Source of the DNA: Clostridia bacterium
GTDB taxonomy: Bacteria; Bacillota; Clostridia; TANB77; CAG-508
Direction of reading: 5' to 3'
DNA length: 62,665 bases
Assembly (NCBI GenBank): GCA_022795075.1
Contig: JAAWGB010000004.1
Coordinates: 1 to 62,665, forward strand
Shown: piece by piece, positions 15,924-57,605 of the stretch
How positions within the stretch are numbered: position 1 is the stretch's first letter
Layout of the letters: every line of letters starts with the position of its first letter
The notes under the pieces: generated by a model
Database searches by the model: none
Seen by the model: the letters and a program-made list of their open reading frames with translations, nothing else
Told to the model about the DNA's origin: nothing
Translations under genes and position numbers: made by a program

Positions 15924-16119
15924 TTTAAAAATAAAAATATTCAAAATTAGAAAATGTTAAGATGGAAAATATTTCATAATTAGAAAATGTTAGAAAGTAT
16001 TTTAGGAGAATCTCAAAAATCCTTTTTTGAGAGGTGCCTGAAATACTTTCTTACATTTACTATTAGAAATAGTTTGACAGACTAACATTTTCTAATTTTG
16101 AATGTTTCTTATTTTTAAA
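15924..16119 (+). repeat. Long hairpin element C (dispersed hairpin family)
   Basis: Perfect 21-bp IR 15939-15959/16083-16103, inner IR 15992-16006/16037-16051, loop motifs GATGGAAAATA and TAGTTTGACAGA. Confidence 0.75.
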
Positions 16120-16329
16120 GATAATATTATTATATTTAATTATATTTTAAAAACATATCAAATTTTTTTTAAAGTATTGAATATTTTAGTAATTAAATCT
16201 ATAATAAATAAGTAAAATAAATAAAGGGGAAAAATTTGAAAAATAATTACTATTTTTTTTAGGGCAAAATAGTAGTTCTTTTTTAAAACAAATACATATA
16301 TTATAAAAAGTAGAAAGGACGAAAACAGA

Positions 16330-17965
16330 ATGCCAAGAAAAGAGATAAGCCAAAAGGTTCCCAAAAAAGAGACCTTTATGCAAGGCGTTATTACCTTGAT
16401 TTTTTCACAAGTGCTTATAAAATTATTGGGTTTAATATATACGTTATATCTAACTAACAGAGAAGGATTTGGCGACAAAGGAAATGGAATTGTATCAGCT
16501 GGTTATCAAATTTATGCCATGTTATTAACAGTATCGTCAATAGGAGTGCCAAATGCAATTTCAAAATTAGTATCAGAAAGAATTGCAGTAGGAGACCATA
16601 AGGGTGGATATAGAATTTTTAAAATTGCTTTTGCAACATTTGCTATGATTGGGTTAGTAGGAAGTTTATTGTTATTTTTAGGTGCTCATATGATAGCTAA
16701 TTTGTGGTTACAAATACCAGAAGCGGAAATGACATTAGTAGCACTATCGCCTGCCATCTTTTTTGTAGCCATATCTTCTGTTATGAGAGGCTATTTTAAT
16801 GCTAGACAAAGTATTAAGGCAACTGCTAGGTCACAAAGTTTAGAACAGGTATTTAAAACAACATTAACCATTATATTAGTAGAAATAATTGCTATTTTGT
16901 CCAAAGCATCTACCGAATGGATGGCAGCAGGAGCAACACTTGCTACAACACTTGCAACTTTTGCAGGATTTGGCTATTTGTATTTGTTCTATCGAACAAG
17001 AAGTAAAGAAATTGCAAGAGAAATTAGGTCAACAGTTAATTATAAATATGAAAGAGTAAAAACAATTATAAAAAGAATTTTAATGGTTTCTATTCCAATT
17101 GCATTAACAGCTATTATGTCTTCTCTCAATAAAAATATTGACTCTTTTACAGTAGTAAGAAGTTTAAAACAATTTATGTCAGAAGATATGGCAATTTCAC
17201 AATATGGAATATTAGGTGGAAAGGTAGATATGCTAACGAGTTTGCCATTATCCATTAATGTAGCATTTGCAACTGCTTTAGTACCAGCAATATCTGCTGC
17301 TAAAGCCAAAAAGGATAAAAAGACCATTACACAAAAAACATCATTTTCGTTATTGACATCGATGTTAATAGGACTTCCTTGTACAGTTGGAATGTGCTTG
17401 TTTGCAGGACCGATTCTTAATTTATTGTTTCCCAATGCTAGTTCAGGGGAAGTAATTTTACAAATTAGTTCATTAACGATTATTTTTACCATATTAGATC
17501 AAACAATAAATGGTGTTTTACAAGGATATGGAAAATTAATGGTGCCAGCAGTTTCGTTAGGGTGCCGGTGTAATCATAAAATTAATTCTTAATTTGGTTT
17601 TGGTACCAATTCCAGAAATTGGTGTAAATGGAGCAGCTTGGGGCTCAGTTGCTTGTCACTTAGTGGCTTTTTCGATTGCGATAACGTCACTTAAAAGAAC
17701 GATAAAATTGGATTTAACATTTTCAAAATTTGTAATAAAACCTGTTATTGCTGTAACGATTATGGGAATTTGTTCATATTTTAGTTATTTAATGCTTTCT
17801 AGAATAATTGCTCAAAAATTGGCAACAATAATAGCAATCGTCATAGCAATTGTTATATATGCCTTAGCAATTGTGGCATTGAAGGTTTTCTCTAAAGAGG
17901 AAATACAAATGATGCCAGCTGGTAAAAAACTGTGCAAAGTATTGGAAAGACTAAAAATCTATTAA
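16330..17965 (+). CDS. SpoVB/MurJ-like polysaccharide flippase, split by a +1 shift at in-frame CGG 17566-17568
   Basis: Two ORFs (16330-17592, 17594-17965) join as ...SLGC-GVIIKLILNLVLVP...GVNGAAWGS when the C is skipped. Confidence 0.8.
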
Positions 17966-18087
17966 AAAAAAGTAAAAAAAAGAAGGATTTTCGGTATTTT
18001 TGGCGAATTGTTTAATTGAAGTACATTATTGCGCTTGTTCTGCAATAAAGTACATAAATTATTTAAATCTTATAGGAGGTAATTTAA

Positions 18088-18366
18088 ATGAACAAAGCTG
18101 AATTAATCGCAGCAATGGCTGCAAAAACAGGAGCTACTAAAAAAGCAGCTGAAGAATCAGTAAACGCTTTTGTAGAAGTAGTAACAGAAGCATTAAAAAA
18201 AGGAGACAAAGTTCAATTAGTTGGATTTGGATCTTTTGAAGTAAGAAAAAGAGCAGCTAGAAAAGGTAGAAACCCACAAACTAAGGAAGAAATCAAAATA
18301 CCTGCATCAAAAGCTCCAGTATTCAAAGCTGGTAAAGCATTAAAAGATTTAGTAAACAAAAAATAA
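18088..18366 (+). CDS. hup: Histone-like DNA-binding protein HU
   Basis: [31 protein letters not shown]. Confidence 0.97.
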
Positions 18367-18400
18367 GATATTTGTATAAAATATAAATATATGAATTCAT

Positions 18401-18430
18401 AGAAAGAAACTAGAAATAGTTTCTTTTTTT
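18401..18430 (+). terminator. Terminator after hup
   Basis: GAAAGAAACTA-GAAA-TAGTTTCTTTTTTT. Confidence 0.8.
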
Positions 18431-18516
18431 ATATTGTAGGAAAGTTCTCCTAGGGTAAGGAGGAGTTAAGAAAAACTGAAGATTTTACTAATTTTGTTTT
18501 ATATTAAAATTGCAAC

Positions 18517-18709
18517 TTGCCAACTTAAATGATTTTCCCCAAAAGAAAAACAGCTCGTTCAAGATAATTTTCAAAGAAATTCTAAATTCATTTTATGGCA
18601 CCCTTTCAAAACAAGTTTGAACATTTTCCATAAAATGAATTAAAAATTTCTATTTCAATTACTTTCAATTCGCTGTTTTTCTTTTGGGGAAAATCATTTA
18701 AGTTGGCAA
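18517..18709 (-). repeat. Long hairpin element A (193 nt)
   Basis: Perfect 38-bp IR 18517-18554/18672-18709 plus a 24-bp inner IR; core shared with 57415-57605. Confidence 0.85.
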
Positions 18710-18821
18710 ATTGGCATAGGTAAGAAAAAAATTTGGTAAAATTTTATTTTTTTTTCGACAAAACTTTACAGTATATTCCAAAAATGGTATAATTTGGAAT
18801 GATGAGAAAAGAGGAAATTGG

Positions 18822-20108
18822 ATGTCGAAAAAATATTTAGAAAAAGACGTGTTAGAAGCAGCAATGGAAAGACTAGAAATTATATTCCAGAATTTTGATA
18901 ATATCTATTTTAGTGTGAGTGGAGGAAAAGACAGCTCTGTAATGGTACAATTGGCTAATAAAGTAGCCAAAAAAATGGAAAAAAGATTTGACGTATTATT
19001 TATTGATTTAGAGGCTCAATATCGCTATACAATTGAACATATAGAAAGATTAAAACAACTATCACAAATCAGAGATTTCTATCATATAACTTTACCAATA
19101 GCATTAAGAAATGCTGTTTCAGTATTACAACCAAAGTGGATTTGTTGGGAAGAAGAAAGCAAACACCTATGGGTAAGAAATATGCCAAAAGACAGTATTA
19201 ATATTCAAAACTGTCCATTTAGCTGGTTTAAAAAGGGAGAAGAATTTGAAGAATTTATTGTTCAATTTGCAAGTTGGTATCAAGCAAAATATCAAGGAAA
19301 AGTAGCATGTGGAATAGGAATTCGAACAGATGAGAGTTTAAACAGATTTAGAACAATTGCTTTTCAAGATAAAAAACATACTTTTGAAAAACACAATTGG
19401 ACAACTAAATTAAAAATAAACGAAAAACATATTGAAGTATATAATTTTTATCCATTGTATGATTGGAAAACAGAAGACATATGGGGAGCAGTTAGTCAAT
19501 TAGATTTAGAATTTAATTATATATATGAATTAATGTATAAAAATGGAGTAAGTATCTATGAACAAAGGCTATGTCAACCATATGGAGATGACCAAAGAAA
19601 TGGATTAGATCAATTTAAAGCACTTGAATATGATACTTGGAGTAAGGTATTAAATCGAGTAAATGGCGTCAATTTTGGAAACATTTATTGTAAGACAACG
19701 GCCTTAGGAAATATCAAATCATGTAAACCAAGCTTTATGACTTGGCAAGAATATGCCGTATTTTTATTAGAAAGTGTAGGAATCTATAATAGAGACTTAA
19801 TGTTACATTATTATCGAAAAATAAAAAAATTTATGATTTGGTATAAAAACAAATATGGAATTGAACAAAAAAATATTCCAGACATAGCAGAATGTAAATT
19901 AGAAAATCAAAAAAAGGCTATCTCTTGGCGAAGAATTGCAAGAGCCATAGAAAAAAATGATTTTTATTTAAGAAGATTATCATTTGGACAAACCAAAAAT
20001 GATGACAGAGAACTAAAAGAATTAATTCATAAATGGGATAATTTATTAAACAAAAAAACAAGAACAGATGATAAAACATTACAAAAAGTGATACAAGAAA
20101 ATTGTTAA
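18822..20108 (+). CDS. PAPS-reductase-like PP-loop protein with DUF3440 (YbdN/IbrA family)
   Basis: SVSGGKDS PP-loop, GIRTDESLNR, YPLYDW, QRLCQPYGDDQR. Confidence 0.85.
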   Translation: MSKKYLEKDVLEAAMERLEIIFQNFDNIYFSVSGGKDSSVMVQLANKVAKKMEKRFDVLFIDLEAQYRYTIEHIERLKQLSQIRDFYHITLPIALRNAVSVLQPKWICWEEESKHLWVRNMPKDSINIQNCPFSWFKKGEEFEEFIVQFASWYQAKYQGKVACGIGIRTDESLNRFRTIAFQDKKHTFEKHNWTTKLKINEKHIEVYNFYPLYDWKTEDIWGAVSQLDLEFNYIYELMYKNGVSIYEQRLCQPYGDDQRNGLDQFKALEYDTWSKVLNRVNGVNFGNIYCKTTALGNIKSCKPSFMTWQEYAVFLLESVGIYNRDLMLHYYRKIKKFMIWYKNKYGIEQKNIPDIAECKLENQKKAISWRRIARAIEKNDFYLRRLSFGQTKNDDRELKELIHKWDNLLNKKTRTDDKTLQKVIQENC

Positions 20109-20123
20109 TAAGGAGTAAAAAAT

Positions 20124-20510
20124 ATGGTAATAAAAATGACAAATAAGCAAGAAAAATTTTATCAATATATGGGGAAATTTTTTGGGTCAAGATTAATCGA
20201 AAAACAGACCAATGACAGAATTTATGATGATGATAACAAAGAATGGTATATCTATTTAGAAGAAGAAAGAGTGATGGCATTTGTATCAGTTAATAATAAT
20301 GTAATTAAAAATGTCTATACCACAAAAGAAAAATATTTAGAAGAAATATTAATGGTAATAAAAAAAGACAATGTTATAACTTATAGCATAGTAACAAATT
20401 ATTATAAACCAATTTATGAAAAATGCGGATTTAAAGTTAGCCAAAATCAAGATTACAAAAATTTTATAACCATTTATATGGAAAAAGAAGTAGCATTGCT
20501 ATTAGATTAA
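20124..20510 (+). CDS. Putative GNAT-like protein
   Basis: WYIY..E.RVMAFVSV...IKNVY...YEKCGF pattern; between the ybdN-like and ybdM-like genes. Confidence 0.5.
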   Translation: MVIKMTNKQEKFYQYMGKFFGSRLIEKQTNDRIYDDDNKEWYIYLEEERVMAFVSVNNNVIKNVYTTKEKYLEEILMVIKKDNVITYSIVTNYYKPIYEKCGFKVSQNQDYKNFITIYMEKEVALLLD

Positions 20511-20533
20511 AACAGGAAGAAGGATAAAGAAAA

Positions 20534-21058
20534 ATGAATGAAATAGAATTTCCCGTATTAAATGTAAAAATGGTAGATATTGATAAAGTTATTGCAAATG
20601 ATTATAATCCCAATAAAGTAGCACCTCCAGAAATGCAATTATTAAAGCATTCTATTGAAGAAGATGGTTATACACAACCAATTGTAACCTATTATGATAA
20701 AGAAAGGGATATGTATATAGTAGTAGATGGATTTCACCGTTATCGTTGTGCCAAAGAATATTTTAACTTAAAAAAAATACCAATTGTAACAATTGACAAA
20801 GACTTGGAAAATCGTATGGCTAGTACCATCAGACATAATCGAGCAAGAGGAACCCATCAAATTATTGATATGTCACACATTGTTTTAACATTAACAGAAA
20901 ATGGTTGGTCTGAAAAAGAAATTTCAAAACATTTAGGAATGGAATTAGATGAAATTATTCGATTAAAACAAATAACAGGACTAAAAGAAATGTTTGCTAA
21001 TCATAAATTTAGTAAATCTTGGGAAGAATTTGAAGAAAACAGAAAAAAGAAAAATTAG
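20534..21058 (+). CDS. ParB/Srx-like protein (YbdM/IbrB family)
   Basis: ANDYNPNKVAPPEM.LL..SI.EDGYTQPIV, VDGFHRY, MASTIRHNRARG. Confidence 0.88.
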   Translation: MNEIEFPVLNVKMVDIDKVIANDYNPNKVAPPEMQLLKHSIEEDGYTQPIVTYYDKERDMYIVVDGFHRYRCAKEYFNLKKIPIVTIDKDLENRMASTIRHNRARGTHQIIDMSHIVLTLTENGWSEKEISKHLGMELDEIIRLKQITGLKEMFANHKFSKSWEEFEENRKKKN

Positions 21059-21061
21059 AAA

Positions 21062-21092
21062 ATTGCCAAAAGGGACGAACCTTTTTGGCAAT
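21062..21092. repeat. Short REP-like palindrome
   Basis: ATTGCCAAAAGG-GACGAA-CCTTTTTGGCAAT; a similar copy is at 33659-33687. Confidence 0.55.
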
Positions 21093-21373
21093 CATTGGAG
21101 TTTTAAGTTATTTTTGCAAACGATTGGTAGACAAGGGGTCGGTTGATTTTTGTTGGTATATTGAGTGTGCCCAATTTTTTAACTTTGTAAATTTATGTGA
21201 TTTTTGGTTCATTTTTGGGAATTGTGTGCCCAAATTGAGCCCAGTTATATTTAAGCTATTATGATTTTTTAGCAACCTAAGTATGCAAAATTTTTGAAAA
21301 AAATTTTGTAATGCCTTTGATTAATTAGCTTAGCATTTGATTTTATAAAAATAAATTTACGGAGGTTTTGATT

Positions 21374-31318: not shown

Positions 31319-31528
31319 ATGGAATATGCAAAAGATGAAATTTTTCAAATTCGATATCATACAGACTTAAATCGATTAGAAATGAGAAAGGATAATTGGA
31401 CAAGCAGGCTAGGAAAGAGGATGAAAAGACATAAGCTACTAACAGTTGCAATTGTTTCATTGTGTGTGTTTGCTACAGTTAATATTATTATGATAGGTAG
31501 CTTTATGAGAATTTTACAAAATCTTTAA
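31319..31528 (+). CDS. Small membrane protein, hypothetical
   Basis: RBS-like AGAGGGGG; C-terminal hydrophobic segment. Confidence 0.55.
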   Translation: MEYAKDEIFQIRYHTDLNRLEMRKDNWTSRLGKRMKRHKLLTVAIVSLCVFATVNIIMIGSFMRILQNL

Positions 31529-31615
31529 AAAATGTTGGAAAAGCTAAAGGAATGTGGTAAAATAATGCTATTCAAGAAAAAGGAGGAATAGTAGTTATTT
31601 TGGCTACGAAAGAAT

Positions 31616-32479
31616 ATGAAATTAGCAAATGAATGGAAAGAATATAAGATTTTAGATATGGCAGACGGTCAAAAGCTAGAAAAATGGGGAGATGTTGTTC
31701 TAGTTAGACCAGACCCACAAATTATTTGGAAAGATAAGTGTTATCCCAATAAGTGGAAAGAAATTAATGCTACTTATCATAGAAGTAAGACTGGTGGAGG
31801 TTCTTGGGAGTTTAAAAAGAAGATGCCAAAAACTTGGCAAGTGCATTATAAAAATTTGACTTTTAATATTAAACCAATGGGATTTAAACATACAGGACTT
31901 TTTCCAGAGCAGGCTGTTAATTGGGATTGGATGATAAATAAGATTCAATCAGCCAAAAGAGAAATTAAGGTGCTAAATTTATTTGCCTATACAGGTGGAG
32001 CAACGGTTGCGTGTCTATCAGCTGGGGCTTTTGTATGTCATGTAGATAGTTCAAAAGGAATGACTACTTGGGCAAAGGAAAATGTAGCATCTTCTAGTTT
32101 ACAAGAAAAGCCTGTTCGATTCATAATTGATGATGTTGTAAAGTTTGTGAACAGAGAGATTAGAAGAGGCAATCGATATGATGCTATAATTATGGATCCA
32201 CCTTCCTATGGTAGAGGGGCCAAAGGGGAGGTTTGGCAGTTTGAAAGTAATATTTATGATTTAGTAGAGTTGTGCCAGCAAGTATTATCAGATAATCCTT
32301 TATTCTTTTTAATTAATTCTTATACAACTGGAATATCTAGTATGGTATTAAAAAATATTTTGAGTGTGACAGTAGATAAAAAATATAAAGGAAAATTAGA
32401 AAGTGGAGAAATTGGGCTTCCTATGGAAAATTCAAATTTAGTGTTACCTTGTGGAATTTATGGAAGGTGGGAAGCATGA
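31616..32479 (+). CDS. Class I SAM-dependent methyltransferase (RlmI/RlmK-like)
   Basis: KHTGLFPEQ, VLNLFAYTGG, IIMDPPSYG. Confidence 0.85.
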   Translation: MKLANEWKEYKILDMADGQKLEKWGDVVLVRPDPQIIWKDKCYPNKWKEINATYHRSKTGGGSWEFKKKMPKTWQVHYKNLTFNIKPMGFKHTGLFPEQAVNWDWMINKIQSAKREIKVLNLFAYTGGATVACLSAGAFVCHVDSSKGMTTWAKENVASSSLQEKPVRFIIDDVVKFVNREIRRGNRYDAIIMDPPSYGRGAKGEVWQFESNIYDLVELCQQVLSDNPLFFLINSYTTGISSMVLKNILSVTVDKKYKGKLESGEIGLPMENSNLVLPCGIYGRWEA

Positions 32480-33162: not shown

Positions 33163-33272
33163 GTTTAGATGAATAAAAAGGTATTGGATAGGATTAAAAA
33201 TCTTGTATGTGAGTAAAAATTAGAAGAAATCAAAAAAATTTAATTATTATTTTTGAAAATTTCAAAAAGTAT

Positions 33273-33301
33273 TTGCATTTTGGGAAAATTTATGTTACAA
33301 T
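33273..33301 (+). promoter_or_regulatory. sigmaA promoter of secG
   Basis: TTGCAT-17-TACAAT with extended TG. Confidence 0.65.
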
Positions 33302-33346
33302 ATCGAAGTATCAAAAAGAGAGAAACCGTAGGGAGGAAGAAAATAA

Positions 33347-33595
33347 ATGGAAATAGCAAAAGGAATATTAATTGTAATTTATTTTATGGTAGCAATAGTA
33401 TTAATCATACTAACATTAATCCAAACAAAAGAAGATGAGGGATTATCATCTACCATAACTGGTTCATCAACAAACAACTTCTTTGAAAAAAACAAAGGAA
33501 GAACCAAAGAAGGAAAACAAAAAAAATGGACAATTATATTAGCAGTAGTATTTGCAATCTTAACCATAGCATTAGGGATTTTATATATGGCATAG
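33347..33595 (+). CDS. secG: Preprotein translocase SecG
   Basis: Two TM segments around GLSSTITGS; secG-rnr synteny. Confidence 0.88.
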   Translation: MEIAKGILIVIYFMVAIVLIILTLIQTKEDEGLSSTITGSSTNNFFEKNKGRTKEGKQKKWTIILAVVFAILTIALGILYMA

Positions 33596-33775: not shown

Positions 33776-35893
33776 ATGGAAGAACAGGAACTGAAGATTT
33801 TAGAATTAATGAAAAACGAAGATTATGTACCGATGAAAGCAAAAGAAATGGCAATGATAATGAGGGTACCTAAAAACGAATATAGAGATTTTTTAGAAGT
33901 TTTGGGAAATTTAGAGTTGAATTTTAAAATCCAAAAAAATCGAAAAAGTAGATATCGTTTAGTAGAAAAAACTTACTATGATGGAATTTATAGAAAAAAT
34001 CAAAAAGGATTTGGATTTGTAAGAATAGAAAGTCAGGAAGATGAAATTTATGTTGCAAAAGAAAATTCACTAAATGCTTTAAATGGAGATAGAGTACTAA
34101 TTGAAATTATAGAAGAAAAGAATAGAATAAAGAATGCAGAAGCAAAAGTCGTAAAAATTTTAAAACATGAAAAAGACACTATAGTAGGTATTTTTCAACA
34201 TAATAAGAGTTTTGGTTTTGTTGTGCCAGATGATAGAAATTTTGGAACCGATATTTTTATTCCTAAAAAAGATATGGGAAAGGCAAGAAATAACCATAAA
34301 GTATTAGTAAAAATAACAAAATATCCAACAGAAGGAAAAAAAGCAGAAGGAAAAATTGTAGAAGTGTTAGGTAATGTTAACGAAGCAGGCGTGGATATGC
34401 TTTCTCTTATTAAAGAACATAATTTGCCATCTACCTTTCCTGAAGTAGTTGTGCAAGAGGCAAAACATTTTGAAAATAAAGTAGATAAAAAAGATATTCC
34501 TCATCGTGTGGATTTTCGAGATAGAGAAATTTTCACCATTGATGGAGAAGATGCCAAAGATTTAGATGATGCAGTTCGTGTAAAAAAATTAAAAAATGGA
34601 AATTATAAATTAGAAGTTCACATTGCAGATGTTAGCTATTATGTAAGAGAAAATAGTTTACTAGATGGAGAGGCTTTGATAAGAGGAACCAGTATTTATA
34701 TGTTAGGAAGAGTTATTCCAATGTTACCAAGAGAGCTATCAAATGGAATTTGTAGTTTAAATGCTGGAGAAGATAGGTTTACATTATCTTGTTTGATGGA
34801 GATAGATGAAAAAGGTAATGTGATATCTTCTGAAATAGTAAAGGGAATTATTAATGTAACGCAAAGAATGAGTTATACAGATGTACAAGCTATTTTAGAT
34901 CATTCAAATGAACAAATACTAAAAAGATATAAGCCATATATTTCACACTTTAAGGCAATGGAAGAATTGGCCATTATCTTGAAAAATAAGAGAATGGAAC
35001 AAGGATATCTAAACTTAGATATTCCAGAGAGTAAAATAGATTTAGATATGGATGGTAGGGTAACTAATATTTCCAAATATGAAACTACTTTTGCTCATGA
35101 AATAATAGAACAGTTTATGCTAACAGCTAATGAAACAGTTGCAGAAAAATTTTTTTGGTTAGAAGCACCTTTTATTTATCGTGTACATGAAGATCCAGAC
35201 ATGGAAAAAATCCAAGAATTAAATAAGTTTTTATTTAATTTTGGAATGAAAATAAAAGCCAATAAAGATAATATTTATCCGAAAGAATTTGCTAAGATAT
35301 TAGATGAAGTAAAAGGCAAAGAAGAAGAAAAGGTAGTGTCTAATTTAGTTTTAAGAACTTTGAAAGTGGCTAGATATGAAGCAGAAAATAAAGGGCATTT
35401 TGGAATTGCCAGTAAATATTATTGCCATTTTACATCACCAATTAGAAGATATCCAGATTTATTTATCCATAGAGTTATTTCAAAATATTTAGAACAAAAC
35501 TATGATGTATCAGAAAAATGGATAGAAGAGAAACAAACACAAGCCCAGGAAAGAGCAGAGCAATCATCAGAAAGAGAAAAGATAGCAACAAAGGTGGAAA
35601 GAGAAGCAGAGGACTTGAAAAAAGCAGAATATATGGAAAAAAGAGTGGGAGAAGAATATGAAGGTATCATATCTTCTGTTACTTCTTTTGGAATTTTTGT
35701 AGAACTTCCCAATACAGTTGAAGGATTGATTAGATTTGAGGACTTAGGGGATGAATACTTTATATATGATGAGGATAGAAAGAGATTAATTGGTGAGAGA
35801 ACCAATAAAACTTATAAAATAGGAGATAGAGTAATAATAAGAGTAAAAAGAGCGAGTAAATTATTAAGACAAATTGATTTTGAAATGAGATAA
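33776..35893 (+). CDS. rnr: Ribonuclease R
   Basis: IDGEDAKDLDDA, HFTSPIRRYPDL, C-terminal S1 domain. Confidence 0.96.
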   Translation: MEEQELKILELMKNEDYVPMKAKEMAMIMRVPKNEYRDFLEVLGNLELNFKIQKNRKSRYRLVEKTYYDGIYRKNQKGFGFVRIESQEDEIYVAKENSLNALNGDRVLIEIIEEKNRIKNAEAKVVKILKHEKDTIVGIFQHNKSFGFVVPDDRNFGTDIFIPKKDMGKARNNHKVLVKITKYPTEGKKAEGKIVEVLGNVNEAGVDMLSLIKEHNLPSTFPEVVVQEAKHFENKVDKKDIPHRVDFRDREIFTIDGEDAKDLDDAVRVKKLKNGNYKLEVHIADVSYYVRENSLLDGEALIRGTSIYMLGRVIPMLPRELSNGICSLNAGEDRFTLSCLMEIDEKGNVISSEIVKGIINVTQRMSYTDVQAILDHSNEQILKRYKPYISHFKAMEELAIILKNKRMEQGYLNLDIPESKIDLDMDGRVTNISKYETTFAHEIIEQFMLTANETVAEKFFWLEAPFIYRVHEDPDMEKIQELNKFLFNFGMKIKANKDNIYPKEFAKILDEVKGKEEEKVVSNLVLRTLKVARYEAENKGHFGIASKYYCHFTSPIRRYPDLFIHRVISKYLEQNYDVSEKWIEEKQTQAQERAEQSSEREKIATKVEREAEDLKKAEYMEKRVGEEYEGIISSVTSFGIFVELPNTVEGLIRFEDLGDEYFIYDEDRKRLIGERTNKTYKIGDRVIIRVKRASKLLRQIDFEMR

Positions 35894-35899
35894 AATGGG

Positions 35900-36015
35900 G
35901 GGAAGGGACAATTGGGGACGGTTCTTAATTGCTACTTTTATTAAAAATTTTAATATTTTAAATAATTATTTAATTAAAAGTAGCAATTAAGAACCGTCCC
36001 CAATTGTCCCTTCCC
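35900..36015. repeat. REP-like perfect 41-bp inverted repeat
   Basis: GGGAAGGGACAATTGGGGACGGTTCTTAATTGCTACTTTTA at 35900-35940 and its reverse complement at 35975-36015. Confidence 0.88.
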
Positions 36016-36028
36016 TCCATTTTCTTTT

Positions 36029-36214: not shown

Positions 36215-36227
36215 TCCTCCTTTTTAG

Positions 36228-38620: not shown

Positions 38621-38649
38621 GGTAAAACTCCTTTCTTTGTATTTTTAAT

Positions 38650-40374: not shown

Positions 40375-40451
40375 TATTTTTTTACTGCTTAGTCAATTCT
40401 GTGAACAAAAATATTATACAAAAAAGGAAGACAGTTTGTTCAAATAATTAT

Positions 40452-40510
40452 CATAGAACTTCTAAATTTATTTTATGGATCTTTTCAAAGCAAGTTTGAA
40501 CATTTTCCAA
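40452..40510 (-). repeat. Degenerate partial copy (E) of the hairpin-family core
   Basis: TTTTATGG..CTTTTCAAAGCAAGTTTGAACATTTTCCA matches the core of 18517-18709. Confidence 0.65.
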
Positions 40511-40764
40511 ATAGAACAAAAGGAATATAATTAAAATTTTTTGACCTTTTTATATTATTTTTATATTCCATCTTTGTTCGTGTGCAAAAAATTGCTTGCA
40601 ATTTTTTTGTACCTTTTTTGTATAATATTTTGGTTGACAGTTTAAGTAATGTTAAAATTAAGCAGTATTTTTTTATTAGTATTTCTAAAAATAAACAAAA
40701 TATACTAGTTTTTTGAAGAAAAAAATGATATAATAAAAAGAGAAAAAAACAAAGGAGAAATAGT

Positions 40765-41883
40765 ATGAAAAGTAAATTAACAACAATCATTATTACAATT
40801 ATTATATTACTAACACTTAGTGTTTTTTCTTTATTTGGTATAATGGTGTGGAATGAATTAAAACAAATGGAAATATCTGCACAACCAGAAGATATGAAAA
40901 CGATTCTTTCAGAAAGCATGGATACAAAAAGTGAAGAAATAAAGTCACCACAAATTTTAGAAAATCCATTTGACAATATAAAAGACGAAAATCAACAAAG
41001 GGAAGAAAAAGATAATTCTAATGTTAATAAATATTTTTATAATCAACTAGAAGATTATTCAAAAACGATATATAGAGCTTTTGAAATAAACAAAGAAAAT
41101 ATGAAAACAGGAACCCAAAAAATAGAGTTGGGAAGCTCATTTAGTTCTTTATTACAACAAGAAGATGGGCAAGAACAATTAGGAAATTATTATCAATCAG
41201 CTTTAGAAGCCTATACTTATGATAATCCAGATGTATTTTATTTAAGTCCCAATAAAATGTATTTAAACATAGAAACTACTACAAAAGGAAAAAAAGTTAC
41301 TTATTATGTATATATTAATAGTGGTGATGAAGAAAATTATTTAATTGATGAATTTTCTTCTAAAGAAGAAGTTGATTTAGCCATCAATCAAATTGAACAA
41401 GTTAAAAATGGAATTTTGCAAAATAGACAAAATAATGCTTATGATAATATTAAAATGGTACATGATTATTTAGTAGAAAATATAGAATATGACACTAGTA
41501 TTTCTAAAAATCATATTTATAATATGTATGGGGCAATGATAAATGGAGAAGCGGTTTGTGAAGGGTATGCAAGAAGTTTTAAGTATTTAATGGATTCACT
41601 TGGTATACCATGTACATTAGTAATTGGAAAAGGAACTAATTCAGAAGGAAATCTAGAAAATCATGCTTGGAATTATGTGCAAATTGATAACCAGTGGTAT
41701 GCAATTGATACTACTTGGGATGATCCTGTTTCATTAACTGGCTGGGTTAGCCAAAGTTCAAAATATCGTTATTTTCTAAAGGGGTCAAATGAAATGGTAA
41801 AAGATCACACACCAAGTGGACAATTTACAGAAGGGGGAAAAATGTTTTATTATCCACCTTTGAATAGTACTAATTATGAATAA
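40765..41883 (+). CDS. Membrane-anchored transglutaminase-like domain protein
   Basis: N-terminal TM; AVCEGYARSF, HAWNYV, DTTWDD catalytic triad. Confidence 0.85.
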   Translation: MKSKLTTIIITIIILLTLSVFSLFGIMVWNELKQMEISAQPEDMKTILSESMDTKSEEIKSPQILENPFDNIKDENQQREEKDNSNVNKYFYNQLEDYSKTIYRAFEINKENMKTGTQKIELGSSFSSLLQQEDGQEQLGNYYQSALEAYTYDNPDVFYLSPNKMYLNIETTTKGKKVTYYVYINSGDEENYLIDEFSSKEEVDLAINQIEQVKNGILQNRQNNAYDNIKMVHDYLVENIEYDTSISKNHIYNMYGAMINGEAVCEGYARSFKYLMDSLGIPCTLVIGKGTNSEGNLENHAWNYVQIDNQWYAIDTTWDDPVSLTGWVSQSSKYRYFLKGSNEMVKDHTPSGQFTEGGKMFYYPPLNSTNYE

Positions 41884-42038
41884 TTAGTAATTGAACACAT
41901 TGAGGTATAGATCTTATTAAAAAGAAAAGAACTTAAAAATTTAATCATATAAAATTGCTTTTTTTATGGAAACCTGTTATAATCTAGTATACTAGAAGTT
42001 CTAGTAGTAGCAGGCAATGGTTTTTAAGGAGGAGAGAT

Positions 42039-42227
42039 ATGGGCAACAAATATTTTCAAAAAATACAAGGAATGACAGTAGAAACATTTGTGCAGAGCTA
42101 TAAATTTCAATCTCAAATGGATGTTAATACAATTAATGGAATTGATGTTAGCGGTCGTGGGGCGAAGATGGTAGGCGATATACATCGTTCCGTAAAAAGA
42201 AAGGAAAAAGATTCCCAAAAAGATTAG
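42039..42227 (+). CDS. Small hypothetical protein
   Basis: AAGGAGGAG RBS, 62-aa ORF. Confidence 0.55.
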   Translation: MGNKYFQKIQGMTVETFVQSYKFQSQMDVNTINGIDVSGRGAKMVGDIHRSVKRKEKDSQKD

Positions 42228-42433
42228 AGCGTTTCAAAGAAAAAAACAAAAGTAAAGGATAATTAATTAATTATTAAAAAAATACCATTGCAACCCATCT
42301 TATTTATAGGATGGGTTCTACTTTTTTATAGGGAATAATTTTCCTATTTTTGAAACTTTTTTAAAAGAAATTACATCTTTTAAAGTAGGAAGGAGAAAAC
42401 TAAAATTTAGAATAAGAAAAAAAGGGGGAAGAA

Positions 42434-52784: not shown

Positions 52785-53354
52785 ATGAACAAAACCAAAA
52801 GAAAAATATTTGAAACATCAATGAAACTCTTTGCAGAAAAAGGATACGATGCTACCAGTATTGAAGAAATAACAGCAACAGTAGGAGTAGCAAAAGGAAC
52901 ATTATACTATCATTTTTCTAGCAAAGAAGAAATTTTCAACTTTTTAGTAGAAGAAGGAATCAAACTTCTGCAAAATAGTGTAGATATAAAAACAGCTAAA
53001 TATGCCAATTATATTGATAAAATAAAAGCAATTGTATTGATACAAATAAAAATTGTTGCAAAATACGAAGATTTAATTACTATTTTATTGAGTCAATTTT
53101 GGGGAAGAGAAACAAGGCATCAAAAATGTCAAAAACATATTTTAGAATATATTCAACAAATTGAAAATATAGTAAAAGAAGGAATGGAAATTGGACAAAT
53201 TAAAAAAGGAAATCCTGAGGCCATTGCTTCTGAAATTTATGCTTTAATTTGTTCTAGTTTAGTATATAAAACAAGAAAAGAAGAAAAAATTGATACCATG
53301 AAATTATTCAAAGAATTTGAAAATACAGTGATAGAAGGGTTGAAGGTAAAATGA
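52785..53354 (+). CDS. TetR/AcrR-family regulator
   Basis: LFAEKGYDATSIEEI...GVAKGTLYYHFSSKEE. Confidence 0.93.
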   Translation: MNKTKRKIFETSMKLFAEKGYDATSIEEITATVGVAKGTLYYHFSSKEEIFNFLVEEGIKLLQNSVDIKTAKYANYIDKIKAIVLIQIKIVAKYEDLITILLSQFWGRETRHQKCQKHILEYIQQIENIVKEGMEIGQIKKGNPEAIASEIYALICSSLVYKTRKEEKIDTMKLFKEFENTVIEGLKVK

Positions 53355-55069
53355 GAGAACCAGTTCATAATATGCCAAAATATGAAAACTTAAAAGAAAT
53401 GCTTGAAAAATCGGGAGAATTATATGGTAGTAGACCAGCGTATTTATTTAAAACACAAGAAGAAGGAAAATTTAGAGAAATTACCCATAAACAATTTAGA
53501 AAAGAAATCAATAATCTTGGAACAGCTTTAATTGATATGGGACTAAAAAATAAAAGAATAGCTGTCATATCAGAAAATAGATATGAATGGGGATTGGCAT
53601 ATTTTGCTATTGTAGCAGGAACGGGAGTAGTTGTACCTCTTGATAAAGCTTTGCCAGGAAACGAAATAGAAAGTTTAATTCTACGTTCAGAAGTAGAAGC
53701 TATTTTTTATTCTAGCAAATATGATGCTATCATGAATGAAATAAAAGACAAAAATCATACAAACATTAAATTTTTTATTTCAATGGATTTAGACAAGCAA
53801 ACAAATGGAATTTATTCACAAAAAGAATTAATCAATAAAGGTCAAAAACTAGTAGAAGGTGGAAATAAAGAATTCTTAGACGCTAACATTAATGCTAAAG
53901 AAATGGGAGTTATGCTTTTTACATCAGGAACAACAGCTATGTCAAAAGCCGTTATGTTGTCTCATGAAAATTTATGTGCCAACTTATTTGATATTGCCTC
54001 TACCATAAAAGTAGATGAAAATGATAGATTTTTGTCATTTTTACCATTACATCATACTTTTGAATGTACAACAGGATTTATTTATCCTATTTCAAAAGGT
54101 ACAGCAATTGCTTTTTGTGATGGAATTAGGCACATAGCAGATAATCTTAAAGAATATCAAATATCTGTTATGGTTTCTGTTCCAATTCTTTTTGAAGGCA
54201 TGTATAAAAAAGTAATGAAAAACATAGAGAAAAAGGGAAAATTAGAAACTGTAAAAAAAGGAATCAAAATTAGTCAATTTTTATTAAAAATAGGAATTGA
54301 TATTAGAAAAAAACTATTTAAAGAAATTCATGATAATTTGGGCGGAAAATTGCGTTTATTTGTGGCAGGTGGAGCAGCATTAGACCCAGAAACAGAAAAA
54401 GGTTTTAATGACTTAGGGGTAGTTACTTATCAAGGGTATGGACTAACAGAGAGTTCCCCAGTTATCGCGGCAGAAGATGATAAATATAGAAGATTAGGAT
54501 CAATTGGAAAAGCTTTTCCAAGTTTAGATGTAAAAATAGTAGAGCCAAATGAAGAAGGAATTGGAGAATTAGTAGCCAAAGGTCCATCTATTATGTTGGG
54601 CTATTATAACAATGAAGAAGCAACCAAAGAAACAATTGATGAAGAAGGTTGGTTACATACAGGAGATTTAGCAAAAATAGATAAAGATGGTTATATTTTT
54701 ATTGCTGGAAGAAAGAAATTTGTTATTGTTTTAAAAAATGGAAAAAATATTTATCCAGAAGAATTAGAAACTTTAATTAATAAAATAGAAGGAATTAAAG
54801 AAAGTTTTGTCTACGGAAAACCAGAAGATGATGGAGATTATAAAATATGTAGTAAAATTGTTTATGATGAAGAAATAGCTGGAGAAGTTTTTGGAACAAC
54901 AGATGAAGAAAAATTAAAAGAATTAATTTGGCAGGAAATCAAAAAAGTGAATAAAACAATGCCAGCCTATAAATATGTTAGAGAAATTTCTGTCACCAAA
55001 GAAGATTTAATTAAAACGACAACACAAAAAATAAAAAGGTTTGAAGAAATTAAAACAGTTATTCATTAA
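53351..55069 (+). CDS. Long-chain fatty acid-CoA ligase (AMP-binding)
   Basis: FTSGTT, QGYGLTES, GWLHTGD, NGKNIYPEELE. Confidence 0.9.
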   Translation: MREPVHNMPKYENLKEMLEKSGELYGSRPAYLFKTQEEGKFREITHKQFRKEINNLGTALIDMGLKNKRIAVISENRYEWGLAYFAIVAGTGVVVPLDKALPGNEIESLILRSEVEAIFYSSKYDAIMNEIKDKNHTNIKFFISMDLDKQTNGIYSQKELINKGQKLVEGGNKEFLDANINAKEMGVMLFTSGTTAMSKAVMLSHENLCANLFDIASTIKVDENDRFLSFLPLHHTFECTTGFIYPISKGTAIAFCDGIRHIADNLKEYQISVMVSVPILFEGMYKKVMKNIEKKGKLETVKKGIKISQFLLKIGIDIRKKLFKEIHDNLGGKLRLFVAGGAALDPETEKGFNDLGVVTYQGYGLTESSPVIAAEDDKYRRLGSIGKAFPSLDVKIVEPNEEGIGELVAKGPSIMLGYYNNEEATKETIDEEGWLHTGDLAKIDKDGYIFIAGRKKFVIVLKNGKNIYPEELETLINKIEGIKESFVYGKPEDDGDYKICSKIVYDEEIAGEVFGTTDEEKLKELIWQEIKKVNKTMPAYKYVREISVTKEDLIKTTTQKIKRFEEIKTVIH

Positions 55070-55228
55070 ATGGAAAGAAAACAAAATAATAAGCTATATT
55101 AAGAAGTATAGACAATAGGGATAATAGATTTTAACAACACAAAAGCACCATGTTTTTGTAACAGGTGCTTTTTTTGTGCTATGTGCGTATGATCCTTTAC
55201 ATTTATATTGCTACGATGCTGTTATTTT

Positions 55229-55759
55229 CTATCTTTCACGCTCATAATCCATTCTGGATGAGATTTGAGCCAGCTGACGAATTGATTGAAATGCTTCTTC
55301 TCCGTTCTCAATATCACGGAAGTAAATCTCCGCAACGTCTCCCGCAGTTGTAATTGATAGATTCATCGAACCGCAACGCCTTTGAATTGGTCCACAGTTT
55401 TTCTTACAAGACCGAATCCTGCTAACAGGAATCACTTTGGTCTTCTTACTGATGAACCCATACTCATACACAATTTCATCATTGTTTATAATGAGATGTT
55501 GGTATTTGCTTGTAAAAATATCACAAATCTTAAGAATCACATGTAGACAAGCAAAAATGAAAAGTAAACCAGCTGACCCTCCCATAAAGACTATGATAGA
55601 GTGTTCTTCAGGGTACATATAAGATGGCCAATACATATCATTAAAAACAAGAGAGAGTGTAGCGAGGGGAATGATAAACAAAAAGTATATCGTGGTTACA
55701 ATGATTAACCGAATAATACCAGCTTTAGCCTTGTAAGTGAAAGTTGTTGAATTTGTCAT
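55229..55759 (-). CDS. Membrane protein with a bacterial PH (bPH_2-like) domain, likely foreign
   Basis: Two TM segments then YEYGFISKKTKVIPVSRI...LSITTAG; visibly GC-richer; two in-frame CGG codons. Confidence 0.7.
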   Translation of the reverse strand: MTNSTTFTYKAKAGIIRLIIVTTIYFLFIIPLATLSLVFNDMYWPSYMYPEEHSIIVFMGGSAGLLFIFACLHVILKICDIFTSKYQHLIINNDEIVYEYGFISKKTKVIPVSRIRSCKKNCGPIQRRCGSMNLSITTAGDVAEIYFRDIENGEEAFQSIRQLAQISSRMDYERER

Positions 55760-56166
55760 AATTAGAATCCTCCTAAAATTTTATTTTGGATCCGCACATA
55801 AAATGCTTCTTTATAAGATAATTATACTACAAAATTACATAATATACAAGTTTTTCTATTTGATTTTATGTTATTGTATAGATAAACAATCAATCTAGTT
55901 ACAATCTTTTAAAAAGATATTATTTAAAATACGATAGCTATATGATAAAACATCTTAAAGTCTTATCATTAGCAAAATATACGGAAGGAAAGATAGATTA
56001 CCGTCGAATAAATGAAGAAAATGTAATATTTTTGTAATATTTATGTAACAAAAAAATAAAATAAAAATATAAAAAAGTACTTGTAGTTTTTCTACAGTTA
56101 AGGTATAATAATATAGAAAAGAGATAAAAAGCAAGCATGCGTAAGATAAAAGGAGGTACTTTTGCG

Positions 56167-57048
56167 ATGTCAAAATCAGGCATAGTAAATGTGAGAATGG
56201 TTATCACAGAAGAAAAAATGTTATGTAATATAGATAAAATACAAAAATTAATCAATCCAAAAAGTAAGAAACAAATTGTTCAATTAGAAGATGATTCTTA
56301 CTTTAAAGATTTAATTGAATCAATTAAAATGTATTTAATAGAATACCCAAAAAAGAAAAACTTTCCAGCAAGTGTTTATAAAGCAGCCTATGGATTAGTT
56401 GAATTTGCAACGAATCAATTTGAAGAAAACACCAAAAAAATAGAAGAATTAATTAGACAAAGAGAACAAAATATAGGACAAGCAAGTCAATTAAAAGAAT
56501 TATTGCAAGCAGTAGAGATTGAAACAAGAGAAAAAGACTGGAAAGAAAAAGTAAAAAAAGCAGAAGACACATTTTCAGAAGATATGATAGATACATTAAC
56601 CATTATAGGAAAAGCCAAAAAAGTAGAAGAAGATGACTATGAAGATGCTGTAAAATTAATCAATGCAAGAATCAACAATTTAGAAACCAATTTACATATT
56701 GAAATCGACATGGAAAGAATTGAAGACCGCTCAAAAGCTTTAAGTTACATTGGAATTGAAATAGCAGATGCCTTAAAATCAATTCCAACACCAATCGAAG
56801 AAATACAAGAAAATAAAGTTGTGGAAGAAGAAAAACAAGCAGTACAACAAACAGTAGAAACACCAGAACAAGAACCAGCAGTAGAACAACAATATGCTCA
56901 AGAAACTACTTTTGAAGCAAAACCAAGTTTATGGCAAAGAATTAAAAATAGTAAATTTATAAGAGCAATGAGATCAATTACCAAAATCAGAATTGTATTA
57001 GATTATTCTGAAGCACTTCCAGAAGGTAGAGGAGAAAATGCTAGATAA
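56167..57048 (+). CDS. Hypothetical coiled-coil protein
   Basis: AGGAGG RBS, long ORF with native codon style. Confidence 0.75.
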   Translation: MSKSGIVNVRMVITEEKMLCNIDKIQKLINPKSKKQIVQLEDDSYFKDLIESIKMYLIEYPKKKNFPASVYKAAYGLVEFATNQFEENTKKIEELIRQREQNIGQASQLKELLQAVEIETREKDWKEKVKKAEDTFSEDMIDTLTIIGKAKKVEEDDYEDAVKLINARINNLETNLHIEIDMERIEDRSKALSYIGIEIADALKSIPTPIEEIQENKVVEEEKQAVQQTVETPEQEPAVEQQYAQETTFEAKPSLWQRIKNSKFIRAMRSITKIRIVLDYSEALPEGRGENAR

Positions 57049-57137
57049 GTAAAAATAGAGAAATAAAAAAACGAATTCTAGTTTAATAGAACTTTCCTAC
57101 AATATAAAAAATCCCATTTAGAAATCCTAAATGGGAT

Positions 57138-57166
57138 TTGACTTTTATCAGAAAATATAGTATAAT
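57138..57166 (+). promoter_or_regulatory. sigmaA promoter overlapping a terminator hairpin
   Basis: TTGACT-17-TATAAT following AAATCCCATTTAG/CTAAATGGGATTT. Confidence 0.55.
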
Positions 57167-57414
57167 GAAAAACAGTGATTAGTAACATATTAGTTGCTAA
57201 AGAATGAGATTTTATTATTAAGTAAAAAATGTATGAAGAGAGAAAATAAAGTAAATAATAATAGGGATTGGAAAATTTAAGAAGTTTATCCTATGCCAAA
57301 AAAGAGAGAAACTGGTATAGGAATGAAACTTGTTTTTATTGTGCAAAGATTCAATAAAAATTTATTTCTTAAAACAAGCCTAAATAACTAAATTAGTATA
57401 CTGTTTTGTAACAC

Positions 57415-57605
57415 TGTCAACCTAATCTATGATTTCAAAAAGGAGGACAGTGAATGGAAAGTAATGGAAGTAAAAATTTTGGAATATTTTATGAAAAATG
57501 TTCAAACTTGTTTTGAAAGGGTGCCATAAAATGGATTTAGAATTTCTATGAAAATTAGCTTGACCGAATCCGTCTTCCTTTTTGAAATTATAGATTAGGT
57601 TGACA
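57415..57605 (+). repeat. Long hairpin element B (191 nt)
   Basis: 30-bp IR 57415-57444/57576-57605 (one G-T pair); core nearly identical to element A in inverted orientation. Confidence 0.85.

Follow-up and report, generated by a model that had tools for sequence, protein, structure and literature searches.

The window, a 62.7-kb stretch of clostridial DNA, carries five dispersed hairpins of similar build, and this raises the question of whether they are genes for structured RNAs or copies of a repeat that spreads. The original prediction favored an expanded family of 6S-like sigma-decoy RNAs and listed an unusual MITE among its options. It is essentially the latter that is borne out by family size, presence/absence differences, inversions and deletions. 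We consider it probable that the five hairpins are non-coding, non-autonomous foldback repeats, MITE- or REPIN-like, that have spread across intergenic regions in a group of uncultured, AT-rich gut Clostridia. On the best reading of the data the repeat is undescribed, and the hairpin shape is what is maintained. A search with nhmmer recovered exactly five copies in the window, of which A, B, and E belong to one type and C and F to a sister type:

15924..16119, plus strand: copy C, full-length C-type element with arms of about 36 nt (fold, nhmmer)
18513..18713, minus strand: copy A, full-length A/B-type element with 38-bp arms (fold, inverted repeat)
40399..40640, minus strand: copy E, disrupted A/B-type element with 29-nt outer arms that are 93% complementary (nhmmer)
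44171..44303, plus strand: copy F, C-type element with an internal deletion of about 63 nt and 32-bp arms (fold, strain comparison)
57415..57605, plus strand: copy B, full-length A/B-type element with arms of 34–36 nt ending in TGTCAACC and GGTTGACA (fold)

Copies A, B, C, and F are near-perfect hairpins of 130–200 nt, and folding confirmed the long hairpins proposed for them (z −11 to −17). Each forms a single long hairpin, with a minimum free energy of −94.6 kcal/mol for copy A (z −16.9 against dinucleotide shuffles), −79.5 kcal/mol for C (z −12.8), −72.9 kcal/mol for B (z −11.3), and −50.8 kcal/mol for F (z −10.8); none of 200 dinucleotide shuffles folded as well as any of the four. The layout that had been described, consisting of closing arms, a two-sided internal loop, an inner stem, and an apical hairpin, is present, as are the loop strands and the GGTGCC junction common to the window copies. 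Likewise, the arms of the window copies are unlike each other and complementary within each copy. A TTGACA-like word is located within the 3′ loop strand of the window copies.

The five copies occupy different kinds of sites. Copy C, whose core (15959–16089) includes the apical GGTGCC junction, is flanked by the stop of a DHH-family gene (15879) and, on the other side, by the promoter-like site (16177–16205, promoter scan) of the gene that follows. Relatives L001–L006 have no copy at this locus, and the DHH-gene terminator of relatives corresponds to the position taken by copy C here. The hairpin predicted as copy A is real, but its ends had to be corrected from 18517–18709 to 18513–18713. It is nested within TTGCCAA/TTGGCAA, the outermost 7 bp, which match a small hairpin repeat that fills the site in relatives. 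Copy A is situated between the HU terminator and a promoter-like site (18765–18793), and the spacer from HU to the next gene measures 455 nt here vs. 175–233 nt in relatives whose HU protein is the same. Copy E had been taken for a 59-nt fragment (40452–40510), which proved wrong: it is a whole disrupted element in the divergent GerA/transglutaminase spacer that has outer arms of the same subfamily as B and retains the 3′ half of the core (40438–40515), with the 5′ half exchanged for about 100 nt of unrelated sequence containing two small hairpins. Copy F, between the convergent genes for a 397-aa protein of unknown function and spoIVA, is a shortened element as proposed; comparison with strains L014, L015, and L016 identified it as a full C-type copy with an internal deletion bounded by short GAAAT repeats, and other strains carry a full core at this site in either orientation. 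Copy B is inserted ahead of the RNase J coding sequence, with the conserved promoter and leader of that gene on one side and the ribosome-binding site on the other. In L159 (RNase J 96% identical) the copy has decayed (fold z −0.15), and L160 (RNase J 90% identical) has none. The window encodes no transposase, and a tyrosine integrase (59762–61027) is its sole mobility-type gene. Unrelated long hairpins are plentiful in these genomes, for example at 52435–52647, and the HU and DHH loci of relatives carry various hairpins. A separate REP-like family (GGGGACGGTTCTT...) also occurs in the window and sometimes hosts these elements.

Beyond the window, the family comprises at least 145 dispersed copies in MAGs and in metagenomes from mouse, rabbit, human, and shrew gut, with a unit of approximately 170–200 bp and a median hairpin length of 192 nt. 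Searches gave 17 loci in about 12 MAGs labelled as uncultured Clostridium, Clostridia, or Eubacteriales, and at least 120 stretches in gut metagenomes of humans and other animals, the alpine shrew among them. In three mouse-gut DNA runs the unitig over 57486–57524 reached 29–31 times the depth of the flank; the summed core depth in mouse-gut DNA runs was 130–170 times, and that of C/F-type loop words 15–25 times, the flank depth. Copy number in these uncultured gut Clostridia is thus of the order of 10^2 per genome. One species that is very common in the human gut carries a fixed and nearly invariant copy.

The element is built in layers that differ in conservation. Only the inner hairpin of about 80 nt is conserved across all hosts. 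Its 25-bp stem with one T.T mismatch is accompanied by unpaired purine-rich loops (AAAGAG and AGGGTG) and a short co-varying apical stem, and a T.G wobble and unpaired purines are conserved. The stretch from ATG to GGTGCC, which holds the apical hairpin, is 34, 35, or 37 nt long depending on the copy; therefore no reading frame is conserved and the element is not coding. Around the inner hairpin lies an asymmetric internal loop that is specific to each subfamily, with 5′ CGAAT and 3′ CGAG recurring and different loop sequences in other subfamilies. The conserved “bubble” of the original prediction accordingly holds within the subfamily but does not extend to the family, where 61 of 145 copies match. 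The outer arms, 20–40 bp in length, pair within each copy: median complementarity was 87% to the own arm vs. 57% to arms from different copies. Between copies the arms share 60% identity, which is background level, and the inner module shares 83%, a value that is partly forced by the search patterns used. In the pair L031/L032 the inner hairpin is 97.5% identical vs. 81–87% for the flanks. As to covariation, 10 of the 25 consensus pairs have changes on both sides. One arm type is common to B, E, the decayed copy in L159, and the copies L022 and L036 from other species, all at different loci; the arms travel together with the element. Some copies possess unique outer stem extensions past the shared arm.

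At orthologous sites, copies are variously present, decayed, or absent, as exemplified by A, C, and B; A and C are both missing from contigs of relatives whose HU protein is identical. Among contigs with identical SpoIVA, the core points one way in three and the opposite way in five, and the orthologous copies L022 and L036 are flipped between two species, whereas each of two large sets of orthologs, with 11 and 12 contigs, has a single orientation. The genomic contexts include terminator-promoter spacers, a 5′ UTR, convergent, divergent, and co-directional spacers, and the centers of other palindromic repeats. Copies nested within TTAGACATTGGGACGG-type and GGTTGCCAAAA-type palindromes retain their own arms, and the loop sequence on either side of them is non-complementary. 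Orientation relative to local GC skew was the same at 36 of 45 loci (36 vs. 9, p = 6.6e-5), and 24 copies between co-directional genes are antisense vs. nine sense, a bias for which replication and gene direction are not separable on contigs. The bias of about 4:1 is relative to the local G-rich strand, which is the coding and probably also the leading strand. No consistent target-site duplication was found at the copy ends inspected by eye, where flanks are AT-rich and the ends uncertain, and a listing of element ends revealed no shared flanking target word by eye. A clean strain-level empty site was not obtained, and a promoter scan detected no promoter or terminator signal above background.

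Four other explanations have to be weighed against a mobile repeat. That the hairpins encode 6S-like sigma decoys, or some other small RNA with a transcript of its own, would agree with the length of about 190 nt, the succession of closing stem, internal loop, and terminal stem, the TTGACA-like word, and the occurrence of core pieces in some metatranscriptome assemblies. The latter come at low depth: in contigs from RNA runs the neighboring HU gene is covered and element A is not, a weak indication against the reading, and since contigs of about 100 kb assemble from the same runs, DNA carry-over is likely. The arm mismatches of the window copies are indeed all G.T on one strand (5/5), as had been claimed, but over 53 independent copies G.T and A.C are balanced (40 vs. 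43, p = 0.83), and with G-U pairs disallowed in folding the family copies gave 11 G.T vs. 16 A.C; across the family there is no strand-specific G-U signal. The covariance model RF00013 gave no match at the gathering score, nor at E ≤ 1 or E ≤ 10, and no Rfam family matched copies A, B, C, E, and F or eight other loci even at E ≤ 10. Five copies in 62.7 kb exceed the 6S norm, as the original prediction remarked of five copies in about 42 kb; together with the core depth of 29–31 times the flank, copies in the order of 10^2 per genome, compared with one or two for 6S, speak against such genes. A large central bubble conserved across the family is not seen, promoter signals do not exceed background, and copies are inverted, deleted, decayed, or absent in close relatives. 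With no Rfam match, no G-U bias, this copy number, and unstable sites, the 6S-like headline lost its support and such RNA genes appear extremely unlikely. We also regard it as very unlikely that the elements are programmed invertons, in which the inverted arms would be recombinase sites and a promoter or terminator in the core would be flipped to control a neighbor. Both core orientations do occur between the same arms at two loci (strains with identical SpoIVA; L022 vs. L036), and some subfamily members contain TTGAAC and TATAAT separated by 17–18 nt and reading outward through the arm. However, the promoter-like pattern is not general, no invertase gene adjoins any window copy, and the neighbors are unrelated housekeeping genes. 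The two large single-oriented ortholog groups and the 4:1 orientation bias family-wide argue in the same direction. Moreover, long perfect inverted repeats can invert by ordinary recombination.

A host-serving module deserves more weight, although it too is unlikely. On this view the conserved inner hairpin would be an exapted binding or processing site that acts within mRNAs or at the DNA level and is kept for the benefit of the cell; it might, for instance, be recognized by RNase III or a different nuclease, stabilize or terminate transcripts, or bind a nucleoid protein. The inner part being more conserved than the flanks, the conserved unpaired loops and T.G wobble, the non-random orientation relative to genes, copy B within the RNase J 5′ UTR, copy C where relatives have the DHH-gene terminator, and the fixed copy in the prevalent human-gut species are all consistent with this. 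Against it stand loss, decay, flips, and deletions in close relatives without visible compensation, heterogeneous contexts (co-directional, convergent, and divergent spacers, and the inside of other repeats), the antisense position of most copies to neighboring genes, and terminator and promoter signals no higher than background. The conservation of the inner hairpin, of its T.G wobble, and of its unpaired purines would follow equally well from a host function or a role as RNA. Given how strongly this hairpin and its unpaired purine-rich loops are conserved, the element may still be a protein-binding structured nucleic acid. Finally, palindromes could arise repeatedly in place by replication template switching, with the core spread by gene conversion and no mobility at all. 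The wealth of unrelated hairpins in these genomes (52435–52647; the HU and DHH loci of relatives) and the unique outer stem extensions of some copies would fit this view, but across many species the same 80-nt core with subfamily arms recurs at over 100 unrelated loci, so that copying between loci is needed, and nested copies keep their own arms with non-complementary loop sequence around them. We therefore find the explanation hardly credible.

For the mobile foldback repeat, no transposase or other mobilising gene was identified in the window, no target duplication was seen at the inspected copies, and no clean empty site was obtained, so that mobility is argued from distribution; the element would be mobile on the evidence of where its copies lie, rather than of an observed event. 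A trans-acting enzyme might recognize the folded inner hairpin with its loops instead of the ends, and the element would probably move as single-stranded DNA. Arm-to-arm copying, i.e., template switching at quasi-palindromes, could keep the arms paired, as could selection that favors foldable units; the two might also act together. Such upkeep would allow the arms to drift near-neutrally with their match retained, and the asymmetric loops would survive only because they are needed. Flips might result from recombination between the arms, and any effects on neighboring genes, such as termination or mRNA processing, would be a by-product.

Among known systems, 6S RNA (RF00013) resembles the element in its length of about 190 nt and its long interrupted helix with an internal loop, but differs in its one or two copies per genome, its covariance model, which the element does not match, its loop, which is unconserved across the family here, and its abundant, discrete transcript, which binds RNA polymerase and templates product RNAs and of which the RNA-run contigs gave no sign. 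Quasi-palindrome correction by replication template switching is a mutational mechanism described in E. coli. It would account for matched yet divergent arms, inversions, and slippage deletions; however, it is a mutational process and not an element, and leaves unexplained the core at more than 100 loci and the asymmetric loops that have not been erased. The single-stranded DNA transposition of IS200/IS605 elements and of PATEs, their derivatives without genes, offers a parallel, in that imperfect hairpins are recognized, as might by analogy hold for the repeat here. These systems lack classical terminal inverted repeats and target duplications. They also have a strong orientation bias relative to replication, to which the 36:9 ratio, inseparable from gene direction, may be compared. 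IS200/IS605 elements, though, have two different subterminal hairpins and insert 3′ of a specific word of 4–5 nt, whereas here a single hairpin was found and no flanking word by eye. REPINs are REP doublets mobilized by RAYT (TnpA-REP) transposases, whose gene is single-copy in the genome and often has REPs beside it. They resemble this repeat in being short and non-coding, in lying between genes in tens to hundreds of copies, and in forming a long imperfect hairpin in which correlated changes preserve the pairing. They likewise show no clear target duplication, and the hairpin form, not sequence-defined ends, appears to matter. In a REPIN, two REP sequences form conserved arms around a variable middle, while our repeat combines hairpin and correlated change with a conserved center and variable arms and lacks the GTAG-type REP head; since the center rather than the arms is conserved, it contains no REP unit in the usual sense. 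The terminal inverted repeats of classic MITEs are conserved in sequence, their target duplication has a fixed length, and their parent insertion sequence is known, whereas the ends of this repeat vary by subfamily and copy, arms being shared only within subfamilies, no duplication was seen at the inspected copies, and no parent element is known. Hairpin MITEs such as Correia/NEMIS of Neisseria, ERIC/IRU of enterobacteria, and RUP and BOX of Streptococcus pneumoniae are alike in being multi-copy elements of 100–200 bp in intergenic regions or UTRs, in differing in presence between relatives, in having internal-deletion variants, and in that they can be co-transcribed with neighboring genes.

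The hairpins of the window are probably copies of a non-autonomous, MITE/REPIN-like repeat and not members of an RNA-gene family. This reading follows from their copy number and host spread, from presence, decay and absence at orthologous sites and nesting in other repeats, and from in-place inversion, slippage deletion and a strand-symmetric maintenance of pairing. Among the identities offered by the original prediction (a 6S-like or sigma-decoy RNA, a protein-binding structured RNA, or an unusual MITE), the last one is in essence the one borne out.

The window is AT-rich (25–31% G+C). At its start lie a 5S rRNA gene, of which only the 3′ portion is included, and then a tRNA gene. The rest encodes housekeeping and sporulation proteins of the Clostridia type (among them HU, RNase J, SpoIVA, GerA/GerAC, AspRS, a Lon-like protease), and the DNA runs containing its sequence are mouse-gut metagenomes. 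A profile search of the window recovered exactly five copies, all intergenic, of which A, B and E represent one type and C and F a sister type:

C, 15924-16119, plus strand: full-length copy in the spacer that runs from a gene end to the next promoter-like site
A, 18513-18713, minus strand: full-length copy in the spacer that follows the HU terminator and precedes another promoter-like site
E, 40399-40640, minus strand: disrupted copy in the spacer of divergent genes
F, 44171-44303, plus strand: internally deleted copy in the spacer of convergent genes
B, 57415-57605, plus strand: full-length copy downstream of the conserved RNase J promoter and leader and upstream of the RNase J ribosome-binding site

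As proposed, A, B, C and F each form one long hairpin (fold z −16.9, −11.3, −12.8 and −10.8, respectively; equalled by none of the shuffles). E had been regarded as a fragment; an inverted-repeat scan revealed instead a whole element with 29-nt outer arms, in which approximately 100 nt of other sequence stand in place of the 5′ half of the core. Upstream of the RNase J gene, at about 57130-57400, a promoter-like TTGACT-17-TATAAT is followed by a leader of ~230 nt that is near-identical in relatives with 96% and 90% identical RNase J, whereas the remaining spacer differs. The leader probably represents a regulatory 5′ UTR of rnj that has been conserved, and the insertion point of B lies downstream of it. 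Directly downstream of RNase J, the region at 59762-61510 (minus strand) includes a gene for a tyrosine recombinase of the phage integrase family, accompanied by an HTH gene in the identical contig L011; this region may be the edge of an integrated element.

In all DNA analysed, 145 copies were found. Their hairpins have a median total length of 192 nt (interquartile range 176–260 nt) and are built in layers. The inner hairpin is common to all copies, a conservation partly forced by the search patterns, and the inner modules are 83% alike between copies. It is surrounded by a subfamily-specific asymmetric loop, in which 5′ CGAAT and 3′ CGAG recur, and by the arms as the outermost layer. The predicted conservation of the internal loop, or “bubble”, holds for the 61 of 145 copies in which the whole core was matched, but not for the remainder, which match only the inner ~80–90 nt. 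For 39 diverse copies RNAalifold predicted 25 pairs, 10 of which show pairing-preserving changes on both sides; one U·G pair is conserved. The copy at 4296-4342 of contig L030 carries an insertion of ~50 nt in the apical loop that is absent from an otherwise near-identical copy of the same MAG (L034).

Within a copy, the left arm and the reverse complement of the right arm are identical to a median of 87%, over a stretch that includes some loop fringe, compared to 57% when a left arm is paired with the right arm of another copy. Left arms are 60% alike across copies, which corresponds to background. The stems thus differ between copies yet stay complementary, as originally described, and the architecture is unusual in that a conserved, asymmetric centre is combined with arms that are sequence-free yet matched. 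One arm type (TGTCAACCTAAAATATTATCC.AAAAAGGAAGACAGT) occurs at different loci, namely in B, in E, in a decayed copy on a relative's contig (L159) and in L022/L036 from other species. Other subfamilies also have common arms, differences in one arm being mirrored in its partner, and some copies carry extra unique outer stems. Since arm types are common to different loci, arms are not made fresh at each site. Copying of the arms from flanking DNA at insertion was not supported as a general rule, because subfamilies share arms at unrelated loci and because nested copies have non-complementary flanking sequence; nor was an evolution of arms faster than that of flanks supported when unconstrained spacer served as the yardstick.

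The proposed 6S-like nature found no counterpart in Rfam. A, C, B, E, F and eight further loci yielded zero matches at permissive thresholds, and 6S RNA or another Rfam family was rejected as their identity; at gathering score the whole window contains only the 5S rRNA and the tRNA. Contigs of RNA runs cover the neighbouring HU gene and not A, and other copies are present in them only as low-depth, ambiguous pieces; these contig-level data carry little weight, and as the same runs assemble contigs of about 100 kb, DNA carry-over is likely. Mismatches that are G-U-compatible on one strand, which had been taken as a sign of RNA-level selection, do occur in the window's own copies (5/5), but independent copies show no such asymmetry (G·T 40 vs. 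A·C 43, p = 0.83; 11 vs. 16 in a second strand-symmetric count). An excess of 122 vs. 25 obtained with RNAfold, a method that favours G-U pairs, vanished under both strand-symmetric methods, and RNA selection was rejected as its cause. The balanced counts indicate that arm pairing is maintained alike for both strands, and covariation within long AT-rich hairpins is not evidence for an RNA gene. A promoter in the 3′ loop (TTGACA/TTGAAC) was also discarded, since a good −10 element exists only in some subfamily members; a consensus promoter scan of C and A gave nothing above shuffles. The same applies to a small core peptide: the stretch from ATG to GGTGCC, apical hairpin included, is 34, 35 or 37 nt long depending on the copy, and as these lengths vary by non-multiples of three, no reading frame is conserved.

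Orthologous sites differ in whether and how they carry the element. At the HU locus, contigs encoding an identical HU protein lack A, their spacer measuring 175–233 nt vs. 455 nt in the window, and have a small TTGCCAAGAG...CTTTTTGGCAA hairpin in its place. A probably sits inside such a small hairpin, because its outermost 7 bp are TTGCCAA/TTGGCAA. C is missing at the DHH locus of the same contigs, where ordinary terminators or other hairpins are found instead. At the RNase J locus, the copy of L159 (RNase J 96% identical) occupies the same position as B and has lost its fold (z −0.15), and the relative's contig L160 (90% identical) has none; in comparison with the foldable B, one lineage has thus retained pairing and another has not. 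At the spoIVA locus, where the SpoIVA protein is 100% identical, the core lies in either orientation beside the same arm (three vs. five contigs, the window grouping with the five). The core is full-length in the contigs L014, L015 and L016, whereas F in the window has lost ~63 nt between short GAAAT repeats; in L014, a different gene is located on the far side. The whole element is flipped between L022 and L036, which represent orthologous loci of two species. In two large ortholog groups of 11 and 12 human-gut contigs, only one orientation occurs. In a very common human-gut species, Clostridium sp. 26_21 according to one source, the element located upstream of an OmpR-type regulator is fixed and shows almost no variation; the homologue search with this regulator returned the same species only. 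Many copies are centred in other palindromic repeats and have non-complementary loop sequence as flanks. Searching for strain-level empty sites by way of RpsO, RecA, the DHH protein and the upstream neighbour of B yielded nothing new, no target duplication or fresh insertion was observed at the copies inspected, whose AT-rich flanks make a duplication hard to recognise, and no mobilising gene was identified within the window.

The HU locus also varies in its terminator-like hairpin TTGCCAAGAGG...CCTTTTTGGCAA (L001/L003/L008, 2820-2920, compared with L002/L004/L007). It is single in some relatives, and in others an exact inverted copy follows ~30 nt downstream, resulting in a 29-bp perfect palindrome that may have arisen by local inverted duplication.

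The unitig over the apical part of B is 29–31 times as deep as its flanks in three mouse-gut DNA runs, and the summed core depth there amounts to 130–170 times flank depth. Loop words of the C/F type reach 15–25 times flank depth. These depths, together with contigs and unitigs that terminate within the core, point to a family whose copy number per genome is of the order of 10^2; related organisms in the same samples add to the summed depth. A 23-nt inner-stem pattern retrieved 17 loci, spread over about 12 MAGs that carry the labels uncultured Clostridium, Clostridia or Eubacteriales and whose sources include mouse and rabbit. With an apical-hairpin pattern, at least 120 stretches were obtained from a metagenome collection; human gut accounts for many of these and an alpine shrew for one. 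One host is the very common human-gut species mentioned above; the OmpR-type regulator protein flanking the fixed copy (human-gut contigs L170–L179, which reach 1.4–1.67 Mb) is indexed in more than 8,000 assembly-collection blocks. IMG/VR contigs, GenBank phages and PLSDB plasmids contained zero matches, and a full-text literature search found no description of such a repeat. If the repeat reading is right, the number of copies of this undescribed foldback repeat in each of these gut Clostridia is of the order of a hundred. The repeat breaks short-read assemblies, can be mistaken for structured RNA genes and occupies UTRs and terminator positions of housekeeping genes such as those of RNase J, HU and recA.

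The window contains further repeats and hairpins. A second, unrelated palindromic family consists of five GGGGACGGTTCTTRATTGCTAC units arranged as inverted doublets at 35892-36023 and 47262-47368, one doublet comprising 55+55 nt (95% complementary) and the other 47+47 nt (100%). The latter palindrome is located exactly at the junction of the ORFs 46297-47262 and 47285-48058, and related GGGACGG-type palindromes host the foldback element in other genomes. A third, short repeat, ATATTGTAGGAAAGTTC, is present at 18431-18447 (plus strand) and 57089-57105 (minus strand), i.e., twice in the window vs. 0.05 times expected by chance, each copy lying just past the terminator region of a gene; one relative (L001, about 490-520) has a variant, ATATTCTAGGAAAGTTC, at its DHH locus. 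Finally, the spacer that separates the divergent genes for the Lon-like protease and a TetR protein contains a hairpin of ~213 nt at 52435-52647 (DNA fold z −8.4). Its outer arms measure 35 nt, and an internal loop and a long inner stem lie inside them. This hairpin is layered like the foldback family, without sequence match to the family or to other DNA compared.

With “+” defined as the strand reading CGAAT...TTTTATGG...GGTGCCATAAAAT...CGAG, 36 out of 45 independent loci with a length of 3 kb or more have “+” on the locally C-rich strand (binomial p = 6.6e-5), a count in which more distant orthologues may appear twice. Between co-directional genes, “+” is antisense in 24 and sense in 9 cases, on contigs that do not allow replication and gene direction to be separated. 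Single-strand, replication-coupled insertion, as in IS200/IS605-family elements, would give such an orientation bias, which would also be expected from selection against one orientation inside transcripts.

For a MITE/REPIN-kind repeat, a trans-acting enzyme would recognise the folded inner hairpin, and the loops would persist only because they are needed. The arms might be kept matched by arm-to-arm copying, selection for a foldable unit, or both; template switching at quasi-palindromes is a known mutational process. A host function of the inner hairpin seems unlikely. A further possibility, though a rather improbable one, is a mobile element defined by its shape instead of its sequence ends. 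Here, the inner hairpin, conserved and deliberately imperfect, would be recognised by an enzyme acting on single-stranded DNA, and the entire foldback would be inserted into single-stranded loops that other hairpins form. Such insertion would account for both nesting and strand bias, and continual rewriting of arm against arm by template switching would yield arms of any sequence that are always paired. The build of centre and arms, with occasional in-place inversion and strand bias, offers a good natural case for two lines of study, the recognition and movement of hairpin DNA and the upkeep of matching in inverted repeats. A shape-defined element, if true, would in addition provide a natural example of sequence evolution being visibly shaped by hairpin-templated repair, and with its conserved centre and free ends it would invert the usual architecture of transposable elements.
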